Below, piece after piece: positions 19,197 through 31,684 of a stretch of DNA of 64,000 nt; the first letter of the stretch is position 1, and each line of letters starts with the position of its first letter. A program made the translations under genes and the position numbers. The DNA comes from Escherichia phage slur16, in the sequence record NC_028248.1, one strand, 5' to 3'. The notes under the pieces were generated by a model. It ran no database searches. It was not told the DNA's origin and saw only the letters and a list, made by a program, of their open reading frames with translations.

Positions 19197-20318
19197 TTAG
19201 ATAAAACGCTTGAACATAGAAGGTGATGAGATTGATGGAATCACACAAGGAAGTGCTACTTCCTCTTTCTCCAGGAAATTAATAGCAGAAGCTACACAGT
19301 CAGCCCAGTCGTCTTTTCTGTTAAATGTTGATCTTTCCCCGTTGAATTTTTCAAGTTCAGTCAGAAATGCTTCCAGAGTATCAGGATGGAAACTGGATTT
19401 TACAATCCTCACCATTCCTTGTTGGGCAAGATTGGCAAAAGGTGAGAACCTTGTCAGTTTAGATTTGTTGGAAGGCATTGGGTCTTCTTCAACCCTAAAC
19501 CCTTCGGCAAGCAAGGATCTGGAGGAGGTTAAGAACTCACTCTTACCTGCCTGACCGGGGTCCACAGAGAATACGATTATACAATCATCACCATCAAACT
19601 GCGCCTGTTTCCTGATGATCACATCTCGTTCACCAGCCTTTTTACAGAACTTGCCTTCTAGACCTGTGGAATACCTCCCGTCATCCACGTTCTCAGGACA
19701 ATAATCACCGGACAGGTAATAAAAGCCGTCGCTATCTTTACTTACCTTAACACTGGCGGTAAAGTCAGGAAATTTATTACCGGAAGTTCTCTCGGTTCCT
19801 GCCTTATCCCATGCCCTGCAAGATACTGATCCAAGGGGTACTCTATCGGCATCACGAAGGAAAGATCTTTGAAAATAGTTTGCGCCCTCAGGCTTTGCAA
19901 ACCAGTTACCATGAAGAAGCTGAGCTTTTTCCAGTTCCGGCAGACCTTCAAGGAAAGCAAGGTATTCTGGGTTGTCTCTTAAGCAAACAGGATTATCGAA
20001 TATTGTTGCGCCTATAAACGAGAATGACAACGGTCTTGGCTTGATCTCCACACCAAGTCCGTTAACCGTGGTGTATTTCTCTATCAACTCTTCTTTAGAG
20101 TCCCCCCAGATAAATTCACCGTCGCGTCGGATAAAATATCTTTTCTTACCGCATTTCTCCGGATCTGGATACCCTTCATCGTCCAACCACCACCTAACCA
20201 GTTTGGCAAGCATGTGTTCTGAATCGGGGTTACAGCTGATAACCATTCTTGATGGATACTTTGACTGAGATCGCAGACGAGACATCAGATAGTCTATCTG
20301 CTCCCATTCGAATTGTGT
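19197..20318 (-). CDS. terL: terminase large subunit, exon 2 (nuclease domain)
   Basis: Contains ISCNP coupling motif and acidic nuclease-type C-terminal domain; frame stays open upstream of the ORF-track ATG to ~20321 (TTQFEWEQIDYLMSRL...); 3' splice site approximate. Confidence 0.75.
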   Translation of the reverse strand, partial: TQFEWEQIDYLMSRLRSQSKYPSRMVISCNPDSEHMLAKLVRWWLDDEGYPDPEKCGKKRYFIRRDGEFIWGDSKEELIEKYTTVNGLGVEIKPRPLSFSFIGATIFDNPVCLRDNPEYLAFLEGLPELEKAQLLHGNWFAKPEGANYFQRSFLRDADRVPLGSVSCRAWDKAGTERTSGNKFPDFTASVKVSKDSDGFYYLSGDYCPENVDDGRYSTGLEGKFCKKAGERDVIIRKQAQFDGDDCIIVFSVDPGQAGKSEFLTSSRSLLAEGFRVEEDPMPSNKSKLTRFSPFANLAQQGMVRIVKSSFHPDTLEAFLTELEKFNGERSTFNRKDDWADCVASAINFLEKEEVALPCVIPSISSPSMFKRFI

Positions 20319-20637
20319 CGTTTATGTTCGGGCAAGGTCGCTAGTCTTGCCCCGCCATTTTCAGGCAGCTGCATGTCTCCATGCAGACCAGACTATATCT
20401 TATAAGCGACAACAACCGCTTATCCTCCCGTTTCGAATCGCTTGATTCTACGTCTTTCGACTAGTCGTTGAACGTTCATCCTCTCGGATGCTTCGCTGCG
20501 GATTATCTAAATTAACACACTGTTACCATACCTTCGATCTCTCTTCGAAGCCTCTATCATGTTACCATGACAGGTTGGTGGTATTAATAGTAAAGATTTC
20601 CCCGCAATTAGGGAGGTTTTACGAGAGCTACAAATTA
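20319..20637 (-). mobile_element. group I self-splicing intron (ORF-less) in terL
   Basis: Minus-sense conserved elements in order: P AAUUGCGGGGAA (20609-20598), Q AAUCCGCAGC (20504-20495), R GUUCAACGACUAGUC (20473-20459), S AAGAUAUAGUCUGG (20401-20388); no ORF; splits Walker ATPase from nuclease domain. Confidence 0.8.
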
Positions 20638-21063
20638 ACCCTCATCGAAGCAAACCATGGTGTACTCAAGCCCTTGATGGTTAAGCTTATCTTGTACATA
20701 CTCCATGTGGCAGTATTTTACAACAGCTCCCTTTTTGCTTCTATCCCACTTGCCAGTGTTCGGATCAAACCGTGGAAAAATGAACTTATGATCCTTCTCT
20801 CTGAACTTTGGCTTAATGTTTTCAGGCAGATCACTATAAATAGCTACCGCTTTAGGCCATAGTCCACCCTCACCTTCCAACTGCGGGGTTGTTCTTCGGA
20901 ACATAACCACAGAGCTGTGGGGGTCATCAATAATTTTAAGTGGCATCAATTGCAAGAGGAACGACTTGCCAGACCCTGCGGCACCGCCGATTACCAAAAT
21001 ATCTGCATCGTTTTCGAGGATCATCTTCTGCTTTTCAGAACACGGTCCGTAAATCTTAGACAT
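20638..21063 (-). CDS. terL: terminase large subunit, exon 1 (ATPase domain)
   Basis: Walker A GGAAGSGKS and Walker B-like VCFDE; ORF-track stop at 20635 lies in intron sequence. Confidence 0.8.
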
Positions 21064-22166: not shown

Positions 22167-22243
22167 TGGTCTCCACGGAGTGATTCGAACACTCGACCTC
22201 CTGATCCCAAATCAGGCGCTCTACCAAGCTGAGCTACGCGGAG
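22167..22243 (-). tRNA. tRNA-Pro (anticodon UGG)
   Basis: Cloverleaf with C1:G72, anticodon loop UUUGGGA, T-arm GAGUG-UUCGAAU-CACUC, CCA encoded. Confidence 0.85.
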
Positions 22244-22254
22244 TATTTATTATT

Positions 22255-22329
22255 TGGTGGCCCTGGGTGGAATTGAACCACCGTCTGGCGATTATGAGTC
22301 GCTTGCTTGAACCTTCCAGCTACAGGGCC
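22255..22329 (-). tRNA. tRNA-Met (anticodon CAU; elongator, initiator or Ile-lysidine type not resolved)
   Basis: Acceptor GGCCCUG/CAGGGCC, anticodon loop CUCAUAA, T-arm GGUGG-UUCAAUU-CCACC, CCA encoded. Confidence 0.8.
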
Positions 22330-22330
22330 A

Positions 22331-22406
22331 TGGTGCTGATGGCAGGACTTGAACCTGCAACCTATTGATTACAAATCAATTGCACTACCAATTGTGCTAC
22401 ATCAGC
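22331..22406 (-). tRNA. tRNA-Thr (anticodon UGU)
   Basis: Acceptor GCUGAUG/CAUCAGC, anticodon stem AUUGA/UCAAU with loop UUUGUAA, T-arm GCAGG-UUCAAGU-CCUGC, CCA encoded. Confidence 0.85.
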
Positions 22407-22412
22407 AAAAAA

Positions 22413-22511
22413 GGTGCTAGGTGATGGAATCGAACCACCTATGTATTCAACGACTACCTCGTCTATTTTCAGGATTAAAAATCCTCGCCCTTGCCAAAGG
22501 GCTTACCTAGC
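22413..22511 (-). tRNA. aberrant tRNA-like gene (possible pseudo-tRNA; Lys-UUU-like anticodon loop but oversized variable region)
   Basis: Perfect 7 bp acceptor GCUAGGU/ACCUAGC, D-arm GCCC-UUUGGCAA-GGGC and T-arm GGUGG-UUCGAUU-CCAUC, but ~47 nt between D- and T-arms; only CC encoded at 3' end. Confidence 0.3.
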
Positions 22512-22609
22512 TCAGTATGTTGACCATGTTGCTAGTCGGCGATGACGACTGTAACATTTGATAATCCGGTTCTGCTTCCGGCTTTCGCTTAATTACAAGG
22601 TCAACAATA

Positions 22610-22700
22610 TGGCTGAGGGTAATGGAATCGAACCATCATCGAGTCATCCTCAACGGGACGGTTTTCAAGACCGCTTGAGCACCATTGCTCCCTACCCTCA
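22610..22700 (-). tRNA. tRNA-Ser (anticodon UGA), type II with long variable arm
   Basis: Anticodon arm GCGGUCUUGAAAACCGU nearly identical to E. coli tRNA-Ser(UGA); T-arm GAUGG-UUCGAUU-CCAUU; discriminator G; CCA encoded; position 1 is U. Confidence 0.8.
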
Positions 22701-22814
22701 TTTATAAACAATACTGATAATGACACTGATTTTCGAGCAGTTAGTGACTAGTATAAACGACGATAAATATCAATGCCATTATCTGTATGATTTATGCATT
22801 TAAAACTATAAATT

Positions 22815-22901
22815 TGGTGGGGAGTGGTGGAGTCGAACCACCCGAGTCGTAATGACAATAGATTTACAGTCTACACCGCTACCTCTACGGGATAACTCCC
22901 C
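22815..22901 (-). tRNA. tRNA-Tyr (anticodon GUA), type II
   Basis: Acceptor GGGGAGU/ACUCCCC; anticodon region AGACUGUAAAUCU as in E. coli tRNA-Tyr; long variable arm; T-arm GGUGG-UUCGACU-CCACC; CCA encoded. Confidence 0.85.
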
Positions 22902-22905
22902 AATT

Positions 22906-22980
22906 TGGCACCCCGTACTGGACTCGAACCAGTGTCAACGGCTTAGAAGGCCGCTGCTTTATCCACTAAGCTAACAGGGC
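22906..22980 (-). tRNA. tRNA-Arg (anticodon UCU)
   Basis: D-arm GCUU-AGUGGAUA-AAGC, anticodon stem GCGGC/GCCGU with loop CUUCUAA, T-arm ACUGG-UUCGAGU-CCAGU, CCA encoded. Confidence 0.8.
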
Positions 22981-25920: not shown

Positions 25921-26475
25921 TTACTCCACGCTGTCAATAGCAAGACTCATTGCAATACGGTATGCCTCTTCTAATGGTAAGAGTCTCCCCCACACATCCC
26001 AACCGACATCAAACTGCCTGCCAAACAACTGCTGTGTGGTTCCGTGAGCATGACCGAACAGTTGGACCGATCCGTGAGGCTTTCTGTTCCACTTTGCAAA
26101 CTGGTAATGGCTCATACAGATCAAATTCTTGTTGTGGCGAAGCTCGTAATAATCTACAACCTCATGACCGAACTCTTTCATAATTCTGACAGTCGTCCTT
26201 GTGTCATGGTTACCACGAACAAGAATAATATGTCCGTTCAACATATTTAGAACATCTGGGAGCAATTTGTTAATATTCTTATCATTAGTGCACGCAATAT
26301 CTCCTAAGTGAAACACAGTGTCTGCAGGTGACACAACAGAGTTCCACTTGGTGATGATCCCCGCATTCATACTGTCAAGATTGTGATCATACTGAGATCT
26401 GTGTTTTTGACATGAGTCAAACTCCATGACCCGCTGGTGGAGAAAGTGTGTGTCGCTTGTTACAAAGTATTTCAT
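25921..26475 (-). CDS. calcineurin-like metallophosphoesterase (candidate RNA-repair phosphatase)
   Basis: Motifs DTHF, GDIACTND, GNHD, GHAHG; start set to ATG 26475 (GAGGAA RBS) just after the kinase stop. Confidence 0.65.
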   Translation of the reverse strand: MKYFVTSDTHFLHQRVMEFDSCQKHRSQYDHNLDSMNAGIITKWNSVVSPADTVFHLGDIACTNDKNINKLLPDVLNMLNGHIILVRGNHDTRTTVRIMKEFGHEVVDYYELRHNKNLICMSHYQFAKWNRKPHGSVQLFGHAHGTTQQLFGRQFDVGWDVWGRLLPLEEAYRIAMSLAIDSVE

Positions 26476-26482
26476 ACATTCC

Positions 26483-26950
26483 TCATTTAAGTTTAATGCA
26501 GTTTTTAAGCTGGCGTTCCATACGATCCACAACCCTGTCTGGAACATCATGAATGCTTTTACTACCATGGCGGTTTTCAACCACGATTACGGTATAACTA
26601 TACCTATGACTGATCGCCATGTCAATATATTCTTGCACATATTTTTCTTTTGTAAATGTATTACTTACCACGATACGGTCGTATCCCATACGCATCATAT
26701 CTTCTACGTTATCTTTGCACCATTTTGCTGCAAGTGTTACTTTACTTGCATCCCAGTTGTAATTTCCATCATCGTCGTACCAGAACATGTCGTTCTCAAA
26801 ATGTGGATACAGACCTTCTAAAGATAGCGCACTTGCCAGTGTTGATTTGCCAGACCCTGGTAGACCACGCACGATATATAGCATTTTAGACATAGTAATC
26901 CTCCGTTTTAATTTCAACGATAGTATACCTAACTGTTTTGTTAATTTCAA
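26483..26950 (-). CDS. polynucleotide 5'-kinase, P-loop (T4 Pnk kinase-domain-like)
   Basis: Walker A GLPGSGKST near N-terminus; ~150 aa kinase-only size; adjacent to phosphoesterase and RNA ligase. Confidence 0.6.
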   Translation of the reverse strand: MKLTKQLGILSLKLKRRITMSKMLYIVRGLPGSGKSTLASALSLEGLYPHFENDMFWYDDDGNYNWDASKVTLAAKWCKDNVEDMMRMGYDRIVVSNTFTKEKYVQEYIDMAISHRYSYTVIVVENRHGSKSIHDVPDRVVDRMERQLKNCIKLK

Positions 26951-27011
26951 GTGTTGACACTAGGTTATTTGTGTGGCAGGATAGACTGACAAAATGACAA
27001 ATGAGGAACGT

Positions 27012-27929
27012 ATGATGAAGTATTTTAATGCAGACGACCTAGTTGACAAAGGTCTTGTAACCAGCAGATATCACCCAGACCTTGGGTTAAAGATCTATAA
27101 ATATGCCAGAAAAGTATTCTACAACAACTTATGGCATTTGTCTCCTCGATTACTGGAGTGCCGAGGCATTGTTGTCGGTAATGAAGGAAATGTTGTGGCA
27201 TGGCCCTTTACAAAAGTGTTTAACTTGGGAGAAAACTCCACCAACCTGCCTGACAATAAGCTTGTGACGGCGGTAGAGAAAAAGAACGGATTCCTTGGTG
27301 TGGTGTCATCTCATAAAGGTGAACTATTGTTCTCAACAACCGGGTCTCTTGATTCTCCATATTGTAACCTTGCAAAGGAAACCATCCAGGAGCAATGTGG
27401 TAATTTAGATCTTATCAAGAAGGTTATGGGCAATGAAAATATGACATTCATGTTTGAAATTTGTCACCCCTCAGATCCGCATATTGTTCAGGAAGATCAT
27501 GGCGCATATTTGATAGGTTGCAGATATAATGATTCTGGAATAATGCTACCAGAAGCAGCTTTAGATGGGATTGCCAAATACCTTGGTGCAAAACGTCCTC
27601 ACACTGTGCGTGAAATTCCGTTCAGTTATGCAAAAGAATTAGCTGCAGAAACAAGAGGTGAAGGGTATATGATTCGTAAGCCTTACTACCCTTATGATCT
27701 GCAGCTGAAGATTAAGTCTCCATACTATCTGGCACGGAAGGCCGTAATGAGGGGTAAAGCTTGGAAGATTTGGGATGATGATATCTTTAAACGTGTTGAC
27801 GAAGAGTTTTACGGCATGGTAAACTTCATTCGTAACAACTACACAGAGGATGTATGGAACTGCCTCCTGGAGCAGGAACGCCGTGAGATACTCGATTACT
27901 ATTTCCACAACGAGAACTATATGCAATGA
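27012..27929 (+). CDS. rnlA: RNA ligase 1 (T4 RnlA-like)
   Basis: LLECRGIVV, KVFNLGEN and motif I KKNG match T4 Rnl1 ALECRGIMF, KFFNLNEN, KEDG; start at ATG 27012 with GAGGA RBS (ORF-track ATG 26994 also possible). Confidence 0.75.
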   Translation: MMKYFNADDLVDKGLVTSRYHPDLGLKIYKYARKVFYNNLWHLSPRLLECRGIVVGNEGNVVAWPFTKVFNLGENSTNLPDNKLVTAVEKKNGFLGVVSSHKGELLFSTTGSLDSPYCNLAKETIQEQCGNLDLIKKVMGNENMTFMFEICHPSDPHIVQEDHGAYLIGCRYNDSGIMLPEAALDGIAKYLGAKRPHTVREIPFSYAKELAAETRGEGYMIRKPYYPYDLQLKIKSPYYLARKAVMRGKAWKIWDDDIFKRVDEEFYGMVNFIRNNYTEDVWNCLLEQERREILDYYFHNENYMQ

Positions 27930-28276
27930 AGAAGTTGATTGTGTGGCTAGATGACTTGAGAGATCCGTCAAAGTACGGGCTCCAAGACGCTGTTTGGCTA
28001 AAGAATTCCTCCGAGTTTATAGATTTTATTAACGATAATAGAAAGCTCTACAGACGCGTTTCTGAGTGGCATATGGACAACGACCTTGGAGAGGTATTCG
28101 AAGGGTACGATTGCCTATCTATGTTGGAGGAAAAATTTGTATTTGGTAAGCCTCCTGTAGTTGACAACGTGAAGATTTTCGTGCATACTTCTAACCCATC
28201 AGCGGCTCGTAAATTCATGCTTGCAGCTGACTCGTTTAAAAAGTTTGGAATAGAGATTAAACAAAACATCTACTGA
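27926..28276 (+). CDS. hypothetical protein
   Basis: 116 aa ORF, ATGA-coupled to upstream gene, immediately upstream of Sir2 gene. Confidence 0.45.
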   Translation: MKKLIVWLDDLRDPSKYGLQDAVWLKNSSEFIDFINDNRKLYRRVSEWHMDNDLGEVFEGYDCLSMLEEKFVFGKPPVVDNVKIFVHTSNPSAARKFMLAADSFKKFGIEIKQNIY

Positions 28277-28284
28277 GGACACTT

Positions 28285-29046
28285 ATGCGACGACTGATTA
28301 TTATCTCCGGTGCTGGTTTGAGCGCTGAATCTGGTATTCCCACTTTCCGATCTGGTAGCACTGCAATGTGGGAGAATTTCAGCATCGATGAGGTGTGCAA
28401 CATCCACACCTTTGCCAAGAACTACTATAAGGTGCATGACTTTTACAATGCACGTCGTGTAGCTTTAGGCAGTGTTGAGCCTAACCTTGCACATCTTCGG
28501 ATCGCTGAGTGGTATTCCCGCTGGTCTGGTCGTGTGATCAACCTTACCACCAATGTAGATGATTTGCTGGAGCGTGCTGGTGTAAAACATGAAGATATTT
28601 TACATGTCCACGGGTATTTGCCAGAAATAGTCTATGAGGACGATGAAGGAAGTGACGTCATTAAGGACATTGGATACTCTGAGGTAGACGCAGGAAAGTA
28701 TACCTGGGTTAAGCCTAATGTGGTGTTCTTCGGAGAAGTAGCTCCGAAGTATACAGACATGTATGACCTGTTGACTTCTCTTACGAGCAATGATATGGTT
28801 ATCCTTGTAGGGTGCTCCAACACAGTTATCAATTTTAACTGGGAGCTATTCCCTGCCTGCAATAAGGGAACCAAACTACTGATCGTTAATAAATACGACT
28901 CACAGCATCTAGAGGAGAATGGCATTTCACGTAGTGATATTTACCAGTATGAGGATCGTGGCATCCCAGTTTGGTTTAACGGTGCGGTTGATGCCTTCTC
29001 TGATAAAACATTCATTGAGACTGTAGAAAACTTTATGGAACTTTAA
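28285..29046 (+). CDS. Sir2-family (sirtuin-like) NAD-dependent enzyme lacking zinc ribbon
   Basis: GAGLSAESGIPTFRS (Sir2 Rossmann/NAD motif), TTNVDDLLERAG, catalytic HG in LHVHGY; no CxxC pairs. Confidence 0.75.
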   Translation: MRRLIIISGAGLSAESGIPTFRSGSTAMWENFSIDEVCNIHTFAKNYYKVHDFYNARRVALGSVEPNLAHLRIAEWYSRWSGRVINLTTNVDDLLERAGVKHEDILHVHGYLPEIVYEDDEGSDVIKDIGYSEVDAGKYTWVKPNVVFFGEVAPKYTDMYDLLTSLTSNDMVILVGCSNTVINFNWELFPACNKGTKLLIVNKYDSQHLEENGISRSDIYQYEDRGIPVWFNGAVDAFSDKTFIETVENFMEL

Positions 29047-29059
29047 AAGGAGACCTTTA

Positions 29060-29773
29060 ATGCTGAATACTAAACTGATCGACAACCTGGAAAAACTGTC
29101 TCAGCCTGAAAACTACCTTTGGTCTGCCAACTGGGTGGAAAACTGGAACCGTGTGGCAGCTAAAGTGAAAAAATCATACACACCATTCGAATTACAGCTT
29201 AGCTTCATTGAGGAAGAGTTCAATGAGGTTTTGGAAGAGCTGGAGAAAGGTGATGGTGGAGATCACCTGCTAAAAGAGGCCTGCGATCTTCACGTTGTCA
29301 CAAGTTATGCCGCTTATCTTGTTAATGATAATCACGAAAAGTGGTCAAACCTGTTTGATAATCCACGAGGTCTTAAGTTCAAGATCGGTGAGTTCTATGA
29401 TACACTGATCGCTGCGAAAAACACATCCAAGCAAAGAGCGTCAGCTTACCGTTTAGCTGAGTTGTCAACAGCTTTGCTGTTCCAGCTTCGCGGCGATGTG
29501 TGCGGGATGATGCGTAAGGTTCTCAAATCGAATGACAGCAAGTTTGCACGGGTCAACCATCTACGGTATTCACACGGTGCCAGTGCAGATATGCCTGCTG
29601 AACAACTCATAGAGTTGGAGATTAAAGATCTTGAGCGACGCTTTGATGGTCGATATGAAGGTTTTGTTGCTAAGGAAGAATTCTACAACGGTAATAAAGT
29701 TATCATATTCCTTGACAGTAAAGGTAAGATCATGAAGCCTTCGAGCTTCAAGGATGTAGCAGAGTATATTTAA
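29060..29773 (+). CDS. hypothetical protein (possible MazG-like NTP pyrophosphohydrolase fold)
   Basis: 237 aa; EEEFNEVLEELEKGDGGDHLLKEACDLH resembles MazG-type E-x-x-E ... E-x-x-D; weak. Confidence 0.3.
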   Translation: MLNTKLIDNLEKLSQPENYLWSANWVENWNRVAAKVKKSYTPFELQLSFIEEEFNEVLEELEKGDGGDHLLKEACDLHVVTSYAAYLVNDNHEKWSNLFDNPRGLKFKIGEFYDTLIAAKNTSKQRASAYRLAELSTALLFQLRGDVCGMMRKVLKSNDSKFARVNHLRYSHGASADMPAEQLIELEIKDLERRFDGRYEGFVAKEEFYNGNKVIIFLDSKGKIMKPSSFKDVAEYI

Positions 29774-29806
29774 CAACATGGCCGGGATTACCCGGCTTTA
29801 CTTGTT

Positions 29807-30145: not shown

Positions 30146-30401
30146 TCTTGCTAAACCTGTAGAAGCACACCAGTTTGACGGAAGCTCTTCATCAGTATCT
30201 GATCTGCAACGGTGGATTGATACAGGTGTGTTTACATCGTCACCTGTTCGGACCAGAGATCTTCGTCGCATGTGTGAGCTTGTAGAGCCGTTTGGTAACC
30301 TAGTCTTGTACCAGGGTGATTGGCTTGTTGATTTTATGGGGGACTGGTTGGTAATGAGTAAAGAAGAGATGTTTAAAATTTTTAAGGAAGAGGCCGAGTA
30401 A
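30132..30401 (+). CDS. hypothetical protein
   Basis: 89 aa ORF, stop overlaps ligase start. Confidence 0.4.
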   Translation: MPLFNLAKPVEAHQFDGSSSSVSDLQRWIDTGVFTSSPVRTRDLRRMCELVEPFGNLVLYQGDWLVDFMGDWLVMSKEEMFKIFKEEAE

Positions 30402-31684
30402 TGCATCAAATCAAAACAACACTGTACGCACTGAACAAAGATGGCAGCTACCAACAGTGGAAAGTATTCACGGATGGTGATAAGGTTATCGTAGAGTTTG
30501 GCAAGCTTGATGGTAAACTGCAATACAAAGAGACGATCTGCACACCTAAGAACGTGGGTCGCGCCAATGAAACTACAGCTGAGCAACAGGCCGAGCTGGA
30601 AGCGATCAGTAAGTGGGAAAAACAGGTCCGACTCGGGTACGTGGAGAGTATGGAAGATTGTGAGCAAGGTGTTGATCTTTTACCCATGTTGGTGCATGAC
30701 TACCTGAAGCGTGGCAAGGCACTTAAATTACCTTGCTGGATCTTGCGTAAGTTAGATGGCCTTCGTCTACTTGTTGTTTTCCAGAATGGTGAGCCTAAAT
30801 TTATTTCCCGTGGTAATAAGTCCTACCCTATTCAAGGAAAGCTTCTGGAGCAACTTCGCTCTTTCCACCTAACCACCGGGATTAAACAGCTCGACGGAGA
30901 GCTCTATATTCATGGTCTACCTCTGCAGAAAATAGTGTCTCTTGCTAAACGGTGGCGCACACAGGAAGAAATTCAGGCCGAGATCGATAAAGACTACAAG
31001 GCAGATAAAAAACGCCGTCAGGCTGCGATTAAAGCAGGTTTAGCAACATACAAAAACTTCAACAAGGTGGACATTCCTGTTGATGTTGAGCCTGTTCGTG
31101 ATGATTTGCGTTACGGAGGGTACTGCAGCTACGACTTAGAGTATCATATTTTCGATATTCCTAGCGATAAGGTGTGGTGGGATCCTGAAACAGAGTCTGG
31201 TCGCTGTAAGGATCTTATGGAGGCAAACGGTGCTATTACTTCTTTGATGCTTGATCATATTAAGGTTGTTGATGCAGAGCTTGCATATACGGTTGATCGG
31301 TGCGAAGAGTCTGTTGGTATATTTATGTCTGAAGGATATGAAGGTACCATTATGCGTAACTTCTGTGGTAAATATGAGTATGGTCAGCGAACATCTGAAG
31401 CATTGAAATGGAAAAAGTTCAACGACGCAGAGGTGAAAGTTATTGACGTTGAGAAAGATAAGAATGATGAAGGTGTTCTTATCTGTGTTGACAAGGAAGG
31501 TGTTGTTGTTAAAATGAAGATGAAAGGCACGCACGAGGAGCGTAGCTATGACAGGATGCAGGAAATGATCGGCAAGTTTGTCACCTTCAAATATCAAGCA
31601 AGGACAGAAGACAACAACTACCAATTCCCTGTCGGTATCTGCGTCCGAAATGTTAACCCAGATACTTGGGAGGTTCTGGAATGA
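30401..31684 (+). CDS. ATP-dependent DNA ligase
   Basis: Nucleotidyltransferase motif I KLDGLR (KxDGxR) in WILRKLDGLRLLVV; 427 aa. Confidence 0.7.
   Translation: MHQIKTTLYALNKDGSYQQWKVFTDGDKVIVEFGKLDGKLQYKETICTPKNVGRANETTAEQQAELEAISKWEKQVRLGYVESMEDCEQGVDLLPMLVHDYLKRGKALKLPCWILRKLDGLRLLVVFQNGEPKFISRGNKSYPIQGKLLEQLRSFHLTTGIKQLDGELYIHGLPLQKIVSLAKRWRTQEEIQAEIDKDYKADKKRRQAAIKAGLATYKNFNKVDIPVDVEPVRDDLRYGGYCSYDLEYHIFDIPSDKVWWDPETESGRCKDLMEANGAITSLMLDHIKVVDAELAYTVDRCEESVGIFMSEGYEGTIMRNFCGKYEYGQRTSEALKWKKFNDAEVKVIDVEKDKNDEGVLICVDKEGVVVKMKMKGTHEERSYDRMQEMIGKFVTFKYQARTEDNNYQFPVGICVRNVNPDTWEVLE

Follow-up and report, generated by a model that had tools for sequence, protein, structure and literature searches.

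Escherichia phage slur16 (sequence record NC_028248.1) encodes a short protein of the Sir2 (sirtuin) family, lodged among genes that point to the healing of broken RNA. The stretch of its DNA analysed here, which we call the window, is 64,000 nucleotides (nt) long. An earlier note, made from the letters of this DNA alone, had marked three open reading frames around the sirtuin gene, and all three are indeed present, on the plus strand:

27926..28276, plus strand: protein of 116 amino acids (aa) with a cREC (cyclic-phosphate-processing receiver-like) domain, matched by Pfam PF20274.
28285..29046, plus strand: Sir2/CobB-like sirtuin of 253 aa, class III-like (YxxR), with a Cys-less small domain; Pfam, PHROG and PDB sequence matches, an AlphaFold2 (AF2) model and Foldseek.
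29060..29773, plus strand: putative all-alpha nucleoside triphosphate pyrophosphohydrolase-superfamily protein of 237 aa, with a probable dimeric-dUTPase/MazG-like fold.

Over the 1,848 bp that they span (27926-29773), Escherichia phage slur12 (LN881735.1), an rV5-like Vequintavirus, shows 100% identity, and more than 110 other phage records match at 90% identity or more across 80% or more of the interval. In slur12 and the matching records, the central gene is already labelled 'cobB', 'Sir2-like' or 'NAD-dependent protein deacetylase of SIR2 family' (NAD, nicotinamide adenine dinucleotide). Sir2 homologs occur in 1009 phage records, cREC homologs in 355 and homologs of the MazG-like protein in 322. 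About 18-25 unannotated records named 'Campylobacter phage' (host Campylobacter jejuni) are 93-100% identical to the rV5-like region, and their host labels look doubtful.

That the central product belongs to the Sir2 family, as the earlier note had proposed, is borne out from several sides. The translation contains ISGAGLSAESGIPTFRSG / GAGLSAESGIPTFRS, TTNVDDLLERAG and HVHG. Profile searches, whose outcome the note had named as a possible refutation, place the protein in the SIR2 family and not in another Rossmann family: the match to Pfam SIR2 (PF02146; E 3e-27, 96.2 bits against a cut-off of 24) is far beyond chance, PHROG 2162 'Sir2' is matched at E 9e-110, and the best PDB sequence matches are SIRT5, Escherichia coli CobB and Archaeoglobus Sir2Af, at E values of about 2e-21. 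The suggested structure prediction and Foldseek comparison agree with this, since the AF2 model built from 40 homologs (predicted local distance difference test score 88.9, predicted template modelling score 0.87) superimposes best on E. coli CobB (E 1e-18, template modelling (TM) scores 0.76/0.84), then on Sir2Af and SIRT5. In Pfam, the protein matches only SIR2 and is not a member of the KptA/Tpt1 family (PF01885). The deacylase models of NCBIfam are its top matches there, with scores far below their cut-offs (NF040867, 122.7 bits against 243; NF001753, 103.5 against 320).

The sirtuin motifs are G9-A10-G11-x-S13, F21-R22, T89-N90-V91-D92 and H109-G110. Across 40 aligned homologs, 50-98% identical to the phage protein, S16, G17, F21, R22, Y54, R57, R58, T89, N90, V91, D92, H109 and G110 are invariant, and the GAGxS residues G9, A10, G11 and S13 nearly so (at least 90%). 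When homologs are clustered at 50% identity, N90 is kept in 149 of 150 cluster representatives, and H109 in just as many. Y54 and R57 align with the FYHYRR segment of SIRT5, and the class III YxxR motif is thus present; its Y is found in 144 of the 150 representatives and its R in 111. Their counterparts in SIRT5 we take to be Y102 and R105, the pair that binds the anionic acyl group. Judged by sequence and model, the product of 28285-29046 is firmly identified as a sirtuin-fold, NAD-dependent enzyme with intact catalytic residues.

What sets the protein apart from zinc-ribbon sirtuins is its small domain. Just as the note had reported, there is no CxxC...CxxC site: the only cysteines are C38, C177 and C192, and none lies between H109 and F148. 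The insert of about 37 residues between His109-Gly110 and the FFGE motif persists, with a conserved 'IGY' motif and, in the AF2 model, predicted beta strands. Counting the query and the 150 best cluster representatives, 74 of 151 inserts contain four cysteines (CxxC...CxxC) and 42 lack cysteine altogether, and the zinc cysteines are missing throughout the close phage clade. Because four-Cys and Cys-free inserts both occur among the representatives, the phage clade is best read as having arisen, by loss of the cysteines, from a short zinc-ribbon sirtuin lineage. That phage Sir2/CobB has a finger without zinc was noted in 2016, in a study of KVP40-like phages that listed T5, SPC35, GAP32, My1 and JD001 as carriers (PMC5107563). 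In addition, the canonical V-x-P tunnel motif reads VINF in the close clade; we considered its loss as a sign of changed substrate and dropped the idea, the position being too variable across the wider clade.

The two flanking genes had been called uncharacterised, a description that is now outdated: the 116-aa product is a cREC protein and the 237-aa product is MazG/dUTPase-like. In addition, the locus has a context that was absent from the earlier note, made up of an Rnl1-type ligase, a kinase, a metallophosphoesterase and a phage tRNA cluster. The further features of the locus are:

26994..27929, plus strand: T4 Rnl1-family RNA ligase, first gene of the operon; Pfam RNA_lig_T4_1 and PHROG 562.
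26483..26893, minus strand: polynucleotide-kinase-like P-loop protein (AAA_33), divergent; Pfam AAA_33, PHROG 2071 and PHROG 505, with the start set at MSKMLYIVRGLPGSGKST.
25921..26475, minus strand: calcineurin-like metallophosphoesterase; Pfam Metallophos and Metallophos_2 and PHROG 547, with the start inferred from a 555-nt annotation in APECc02.
29780..29797, plus strand: terminator-like GC-rich hairpin directly 3' of the MazG-like gene; a consensus match only.
30401..31684, plus strand: ATP-dependent DNA ligase, a conserved member of the syntenic block; Pfam DNA_ligase_A_M and DNA_ligase_OB_2.
22167..22980, minus strand: phage tRNA cluster (Pro, Met, Thr, an odd 99-nt tRNA-like gene, Ser, Tyr, Arg); ARAGORN and Rfam tRNA.

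The cREC protein matches PF20274 at E 4.5e-15 (56.5 bits against a cut-off of 27). In 22 homologs, including proteins of jumbo phages and Campylobacterota, R12, D51 and D53 of the receiver-like acidic site are invariant and D9 and D10 are kept in at least 90%; in the VHTSNP motif, V86, H87, N90 and P91 are invariant, and T88 and S89, together with K96, again reach at least 90%. The domain was defined in a 2021 jumbo-phage survey by the group of Iyer et al. (PMC7824862), was later described as experimentally uncharacterised (PMC9503650), and has a catalytic activity that is only predicted. For the 237-aa protein, the 'weak MazG-like features' of the note were a fair description (Pfam PRA-PH, E 0.083; PHROG 671 'nucleotide pyrophosphohydrolase', E 5e-22). 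The RNA ligase matches Pfam RNA_lig_T4_1 at E 6.3e-15 and PHROG 562 at E 7.7e-67; with TIGR02308 it reaches no more than 39 bits, where the cut-off is 242, and is therefore a distant member of the family. The kinase-like protein (AAA_33, E 3.4e-9; PHROG 2071, E 4.5e-57; PHROG 505 'polynucleotide kinase', E 2.8e-9) and the metallophosphoesterase (Metallophos, E 5e-6; Metallophos_2, E 3.6e-6; PHROG 547 'phosphoesterase', E 5.6e-52) are encoded by genes transcribed divergently from a region of about 100 bp. Searched against solved structures, the profile of the MazG-like protein gave no match at E values up to 10, the Rnl1-like protein only a spurious one, and the cREC profile a spurious one at E 0.52.

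The genes on the plus strand are packed tightly. The stop of the RNA ligase gene and the start of the cREC gene overlap as ATGA, the sole true gene overlap. The cREC stop lies 8 nt ahead of the Sir2 ATG, with GAGGA overlapping the stop, and 13 nt separate Sir2 from the 237-aa gene, with AAGGAG between them. This tight spacing, with a Shine-Dalgarno sequence on either side, supports co-transcription of Sir2 with both neighbours, as had been supposed. Behind the last gene stands the hairpin, a stem of seven pairs, six of them GC, reading GGCCGGGATTACCCGGCT then TTACTTGTTG, which is probably where the Rnl1-cREC-Sir2-MazG unit ends. Given the overlap, the tight gaps and the terminator-like hairpin, the predicted transcription unit is one of four genes, Rnl1-cREC-Sir2-pyrophosphatase. 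About 3 kb beyond the metallophosphoesterase gene, ARAGORN finds seven tRNA genes, and these possibly supply candidate substrates for a repair module. One member of the cluster is odd: the 99-nt tRNA-like gene at 22413-22511 (minus strand) is reported by ARAGORN as 'tRNA-???' with a four-base anticodon (atcc), scores 35.5 bits with Rfam tRNA and may be an intron-containing or degenerate tRNA.

We then looked at the neighbourhoods of Sir2 homologs at 76 viral-contig loci and in several annotated phages. In the Vequintavirinae, the loci hold the metallophosphoesterase, kinase, Rnl1, cREC, Sir2, DNA ligase and MazG-like genes, in an order that is shuffled between rV5-like phages and Mydovirus; the latter has Rnl1-cREC-kinase-x-Sir2-DNA ligase and, some 3 kb further downstream, the MazG-like gene. 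About 30 T5-like loci have Sir2 followed by HAD_SAK_2, a 'Swiss Army Knife RNA repair' HAD phosphatase (E 1.8e-20). There, two tandem DUF7415 genes (E 3e-33 and 2e-30) always trail the pair, for example in Salmonella phage S131 (locus L002, 5494-6325), and may be part of the Sir2-HAD_SAK_2 module. Jumbo phage JP4 has Sir2, a Nudt16-like Nudix, cREC and a PIN-PhoH protein together. In the phapecoctavirus-like Escherichia phage vB_EcoM_UP17, the Sir2 homolog (locus L084, 6001-6801) lies 4 kb downstream of an Acb2_Tad1_hairpin gene (PF24729; 1918-2193), and cREC is about 33 kb off. PF24729 is a family of anti-CBASS and anti-Thoeris sponges.

In Justusliebigvirus alia, a block of cREC, metallophosphoesterase, Rnl1, kinase, DNA ligase and MazG-like genes stands intact beside a tRNA cluster. 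Between the cluster and the block lies a gene annotated as nicotinate phosphoribosyltransferase, a NAD-salvage function (locus L166, 2258-3991), and its position suggests that NAD supply is linked to the repair block; tblastn with the alia phosphoribosyltransferase finds no homolog in the window. The DNA ligase gene adjoins Sir2 in Mydovirus and lies within the block in alia. cREC and the pyrophosphatase keep company with the ligases, and the point at which Sir2 enters the block varies. The earlier note had thought that the sirtuin and its two neighbours might act as a three-gene unit. The tight spacing speaks for this, but from the alia and Mydovirus arrangements the unit is too narrow and only loosely supported, as the RNA ligase joins the operon and the position of Sir2 varies.

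Cellular relatives, 35-53% identical to the phage Sir2, were found at 80 genome loci. Among them are Cys-less proteins in Marinobacterium and Pseudochelatococcus and four-Cys ones in Campylobacterota and Verrucomicrobiota. By single-sequence phmmer, one of the 80 loci, and only one, has a cREC gene: a short contig from a Campylobacterota metagenome-assembled genome (JAYEIM010000071.1; locus L127, 186-2121) carries cREC (E 1.4e-25) followed by two tandem SIR2 genes, one for a protein of 293 aa and the other for a four-Cys, 'IGY'-type protein of 236 aa. This is another, independent cREC-sirtuin pairing, outside the enterobacterial phages.

What could a sirtuin do in such company? Iyer, Burroughs, Anantharaman and Aravind described the same neighbourhood in 2022 (PMC9503650, section 3.7.3), with Escherichia phage V5 and Proteus phage Mydo as prototypes, and proposed, as a prediction only, that the sirtuin removes RNA 2'-phosphates in the manner of KptA/Tpt1. 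Their proposal, with our additions, is that the module would heal and seal tRNA or other RNA cut by metal-independent anticodon nucleases of the host, whose cuts leave 2',3'-cyclic phosphate and 5'-OH ends. The kinase would phosphorylate the 5'-OH end, cREC and/or the metallophosphoesterase would open or remove the cyclic phosphate, and the ligase would seal the break. The sirtuin would then spend NAD+ to remove the residual 2'-phosphate: an oxygen of the phosphate would attack C1'' of NAD, nicotinamide would leave, and the 2''-OH of the ADP-ribose, activated through His109, would attack the phosphorus. Finally, the product would be processed by cREC and possibly by a pyrophosphatase. For Tpt1, PMC11417386 describes a substrate oxygen attacking C1'' of NAD, followed by a 2''-OH attack that gives a 1'',2''-cyclic product. 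We infer that the sirtuin and Tpt1 mechanisms would run in chemical parallel, with an oxygen attacking NAD C1'' and the ribose 2''-OH then leading to a 1'',2''-cyclic species.

A role of the sirtuin in RNA repair within the phage module is favoured by its recurrent place beside cREC, HAD_SAK or Nudix, enzymes predicted to process RNA ends or ADP-ribose phosphates, in arrangements that are not mutually syntenic, and by the operon it shares with an RNA ligase. Its cREC and HAD partners, whose active sites are built on aspartate (as is established for HAD and predicted for cREC), fit a phosphorylated substrate or product, and lysine deacylation makes none; the retained Y54/R57 pair would suit an anionic group. 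We regard such a role as plausible, at somewhat less than an even chance. A more specific version, likewise the prediction of PMC9503650, is held more tentatively still: the phage sirtuin would not be a protein deacylase at all, rather the first sirtuin to act on nucleic acid, a NAD-dependent RNA 2'-phosphotransferase or RNA-end ADP-ribosyltransferase that completes tRNA repair, and cREC would be a new receiver-fold phosphoesterase that clears the ADP-ribose cyclic-phosphate by-product. Identity and context are firm, and the RNA substrate and the 2'-phosphotransferase chemistry remain proposals. The note had considered modification of host proteins or a NAD-linked anti-defence function, neither of which is now the best supported, since the RNA ligase, kinase, phosphoesterase and tRNA context points to RNA end-healing.

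Several observations weigh against RNA repair, and some of them speak directly for a rival view, in which the protein is an ordinary NAD-dependent lysine deacylase (deacetylase, desuccinylase or demalonylase) that remodels host or phage proteins and owes its place among RNA-repair genes to shared expression timing or inherited synteny. Its nearest relatives by sequence and fold, CobB, SIRT5 and Sir2Af, are bona fide protein deacylases, the top NCBIfam matches are models of 'NAD-dependent protein deacylase', and the class III YxxR, the catalytic His, N, D and the FGE loop are all kept. The protein is acidic (isoelectric point 4.8, clade median 5.07), whereas Tpt1-type RNA binders are basic. Healing and sealing by T4-type Pnkp and Rnl1 leave no 2'-phosphate, and the metallophosphoesterase that is present could itself clear phosphates (compare T4 Pnkp and Clostridium Pnkp). 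The 237-aa protein looks most similar to dimeric dUTPases and may instead have a role in sanitation of the deoxynucleotide pool. No recognisable RNA-repair neighbours lie by Sir2 in KVP40, Salmonella phage SE131 or vB_EcoM_UP17, and the alia block is without Sir2, which lies about 30 kb away, so that part of the association could be inherited synteny. Among the cellular relatives (35-50% identical in the comparison that favours a deacylase), the two loci inspected by Pfam have ordinary chromosomal contexts, with transporters, a GGACT protein, an aldose epimerase, a TetR regulator and a hydrogenase, and these fit a housekeeping deacylase; at 79 of the 80 loci there is no RNA-repair neighbour by single-sequence phmmer, a search that would miss 2H, Nudix and distant families. 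The argument for RNA repair is also partly circular, as the RNA-repair labels of cREC and HAD_SAK are predictions of the same research group. For KVP40-like phages, a deacylase function has in fact been argued, for example in activating acetyl-CoA synthetase (PMC5107563). Against a deacylase stand the NCBIfam scores, every one far below its cut-off (122.7 bits against 243 for the best), the loss of the zinc cysteines across the close phage clade and its VINF in place of V-x-P, the adjacency of cREC, HAD_SAK or Nudix that recurs in non-syntenic arrangements, and the neighbourhood of Sir2, where no acetyltransferase or target gene is evident. On balance, we think an ordinary deacylase somewhat less likely than a role in RNA repair.

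Two further views keep the NAD chemistry and change its target. The sirtuin might be a NAD-dependent ADP-ribosyltransferase that tags RNA or DNA ends (capping of 5'- or 3'-phosphates, as by KptA/TRPT1) or proteins, with cREC and a pyrophosphatase reversing or trimming the mark. Some sirtuins have such activity (cited in PMC9503650), the Nudix neighbour in JP4 is Nudt16-like, from a family that acts on RNA caps and ADP-ribose, and cREC is predicted to process ADP-ribose derivatives (PMC9503650, PMC7824862). However, unlike in SirTM systems, no macrodomain partner is found among the neighbours, and the deacylase-typical catalytic His is kept; we hold this view to be improbable. A SirTM-type system as such was set aside, as a scan of nine neighbouring proteins turned up no Macro domain. 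Less probable again, and one to which we give very little credence, is a NAD-linked counter-defence or exclusion factor, either a NADase or an enzyme that, with cREC and the pyrophosphatase, consumes or modifies ADP-ribose-derived immune signals. The predicted processing of ADP-ribose derivatives by cREC and Nudix, the UP17 homolog 4 kb from an Acb2/Tad1-hairpin gene and the NAD-salvage phosphoribosyltransferase gene that borders the repair block in alia would all agree with it; yet none of the SIR2 effector models in PADLOC fits, the protein has the fold and motifs of a canonical sirtuin and not those of the ThsA, DSR or SIR2-HerA type, no sensor or partner domain is found, and NADase activity without regulation would be harmful to a phage that may itself need NAD. 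The defence-type, NAD-consuming SIR2 activity that the earlier note had brought up is likewise unsupported and was rejected, as PADLOC scans of all six module proteins gave no SIR2 match and the nearest folds are deacylases.

If an RNA-repair function were true, it would mean a new class of sirtuin reaction, the transfer of phosphate from RNA to NAD, the first biochemical function for the cREC domain, and a counter-measure to tRNA-cleaving defences in more than 1000 sequenced phages, including rV5-like and T5-like ones. In the full-text literature that we searched, there is no experimental follow-up of the phage sirtuin, only the surveys of the Aravind group and an in-silico study of KVP40-like phages; a paper on NARP3 proved irrelevant, as it concerns bacterial Sir2-HerA. 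The gene, its zinc-less finger (2016) and its neighbourhood with the hypothesis (2022) are already known, and the finding made by scanning this DNA adds little to them.

Elsewhere in the window, at 20369-20647 on the minus strand, the large terminase gene is interrupted by a group I catalytic intron, matched by Rfam RF00028 over the full-length model (84.3 bits, E 1e-20). Of the two open reading frames that flank it, the upstream one (20635-21063) corresponds to Terminase_6N positions 2-104 and the downstream one (19197-20285) to positions 117-211 plus Terminase_6C. The intron is polymorphic. It is carried by 51 of 121 related phage records, which cover at least 80% of the query; many other records cover 57% over a 432-bp span, with an uninterrupted 'terminase large subunit', and some have a longer insert annotated as 'recombination endonuclease VII'.

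How does the phage sirtuin compare with known systems? The SIR2 NADases of bacterial defence (ThsA, DSR1/2, SIR2-HerA, SIR2-APAZ/pAgo) belong to the same superfamily and are also without a zinc ribbon, but the phage sirtuin has no PADLOC match and no sensor or partner (SLOG, HerA, pAgo/APAZ), and keeps canonical deacylase motifs and folds. With the class III sirtuins (CobB, SIRT5, Sir2Af1, Sir2Af2) it shares the fold (TM 0.74-0.84) and the GAGxS, FR, N, D, His, YxxR and FGE-loop features; it differs from them in being about 25-27% identical, in being without the four zinc cysteines, in its VINF for V-x-P and in its phage RNA-repair context. KptA/Tpt1, the proposed functional analogue, is likewise NAD-dependent and acts in an RNA ligase context, but its fold is unrelated, that of an ADP-ribosyltransferase as against the Rossmann type of the phage sirtuin.

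T4 Pnkp-Rnl1 and bacterial Pnkp/Hen1 have in common with the slur16 locus a kinase, a phosphoesterase and an Rnl1-family ligase in a tRNA-carrying phage, with a presumed role against anticodon nucleases. In contrast to T4, the kinase and the phosphoesterase are separate small proteins here, and the latter is of the calcineurin-like kind known from Clostridium Pnkp, not of the HAD kind; T4 has nothing that corresponds to the cREC, sirtuin and pyrophosphatase genes. The type 2 phage sirtuin RNA-repair neighbourhood of PMC9503650 is the same system, and nothing substantive differs in slur16: all six of its parts (sirtuin, T4-like RNA ligase, cREC, nucleotide kinase, MazG-superfamily pyrophosphatase and calcineurin-like phosphoesterase) lie within 25921-29773. 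To that description we add a DNA ligase in the syntenic block, a MazG-like protein that looks nearest in fold to dimeric dUTPases, a variable position of Sir2 relative to the block, and zinc-containing as well as zinc-less cellular relatives outside repair contexts.

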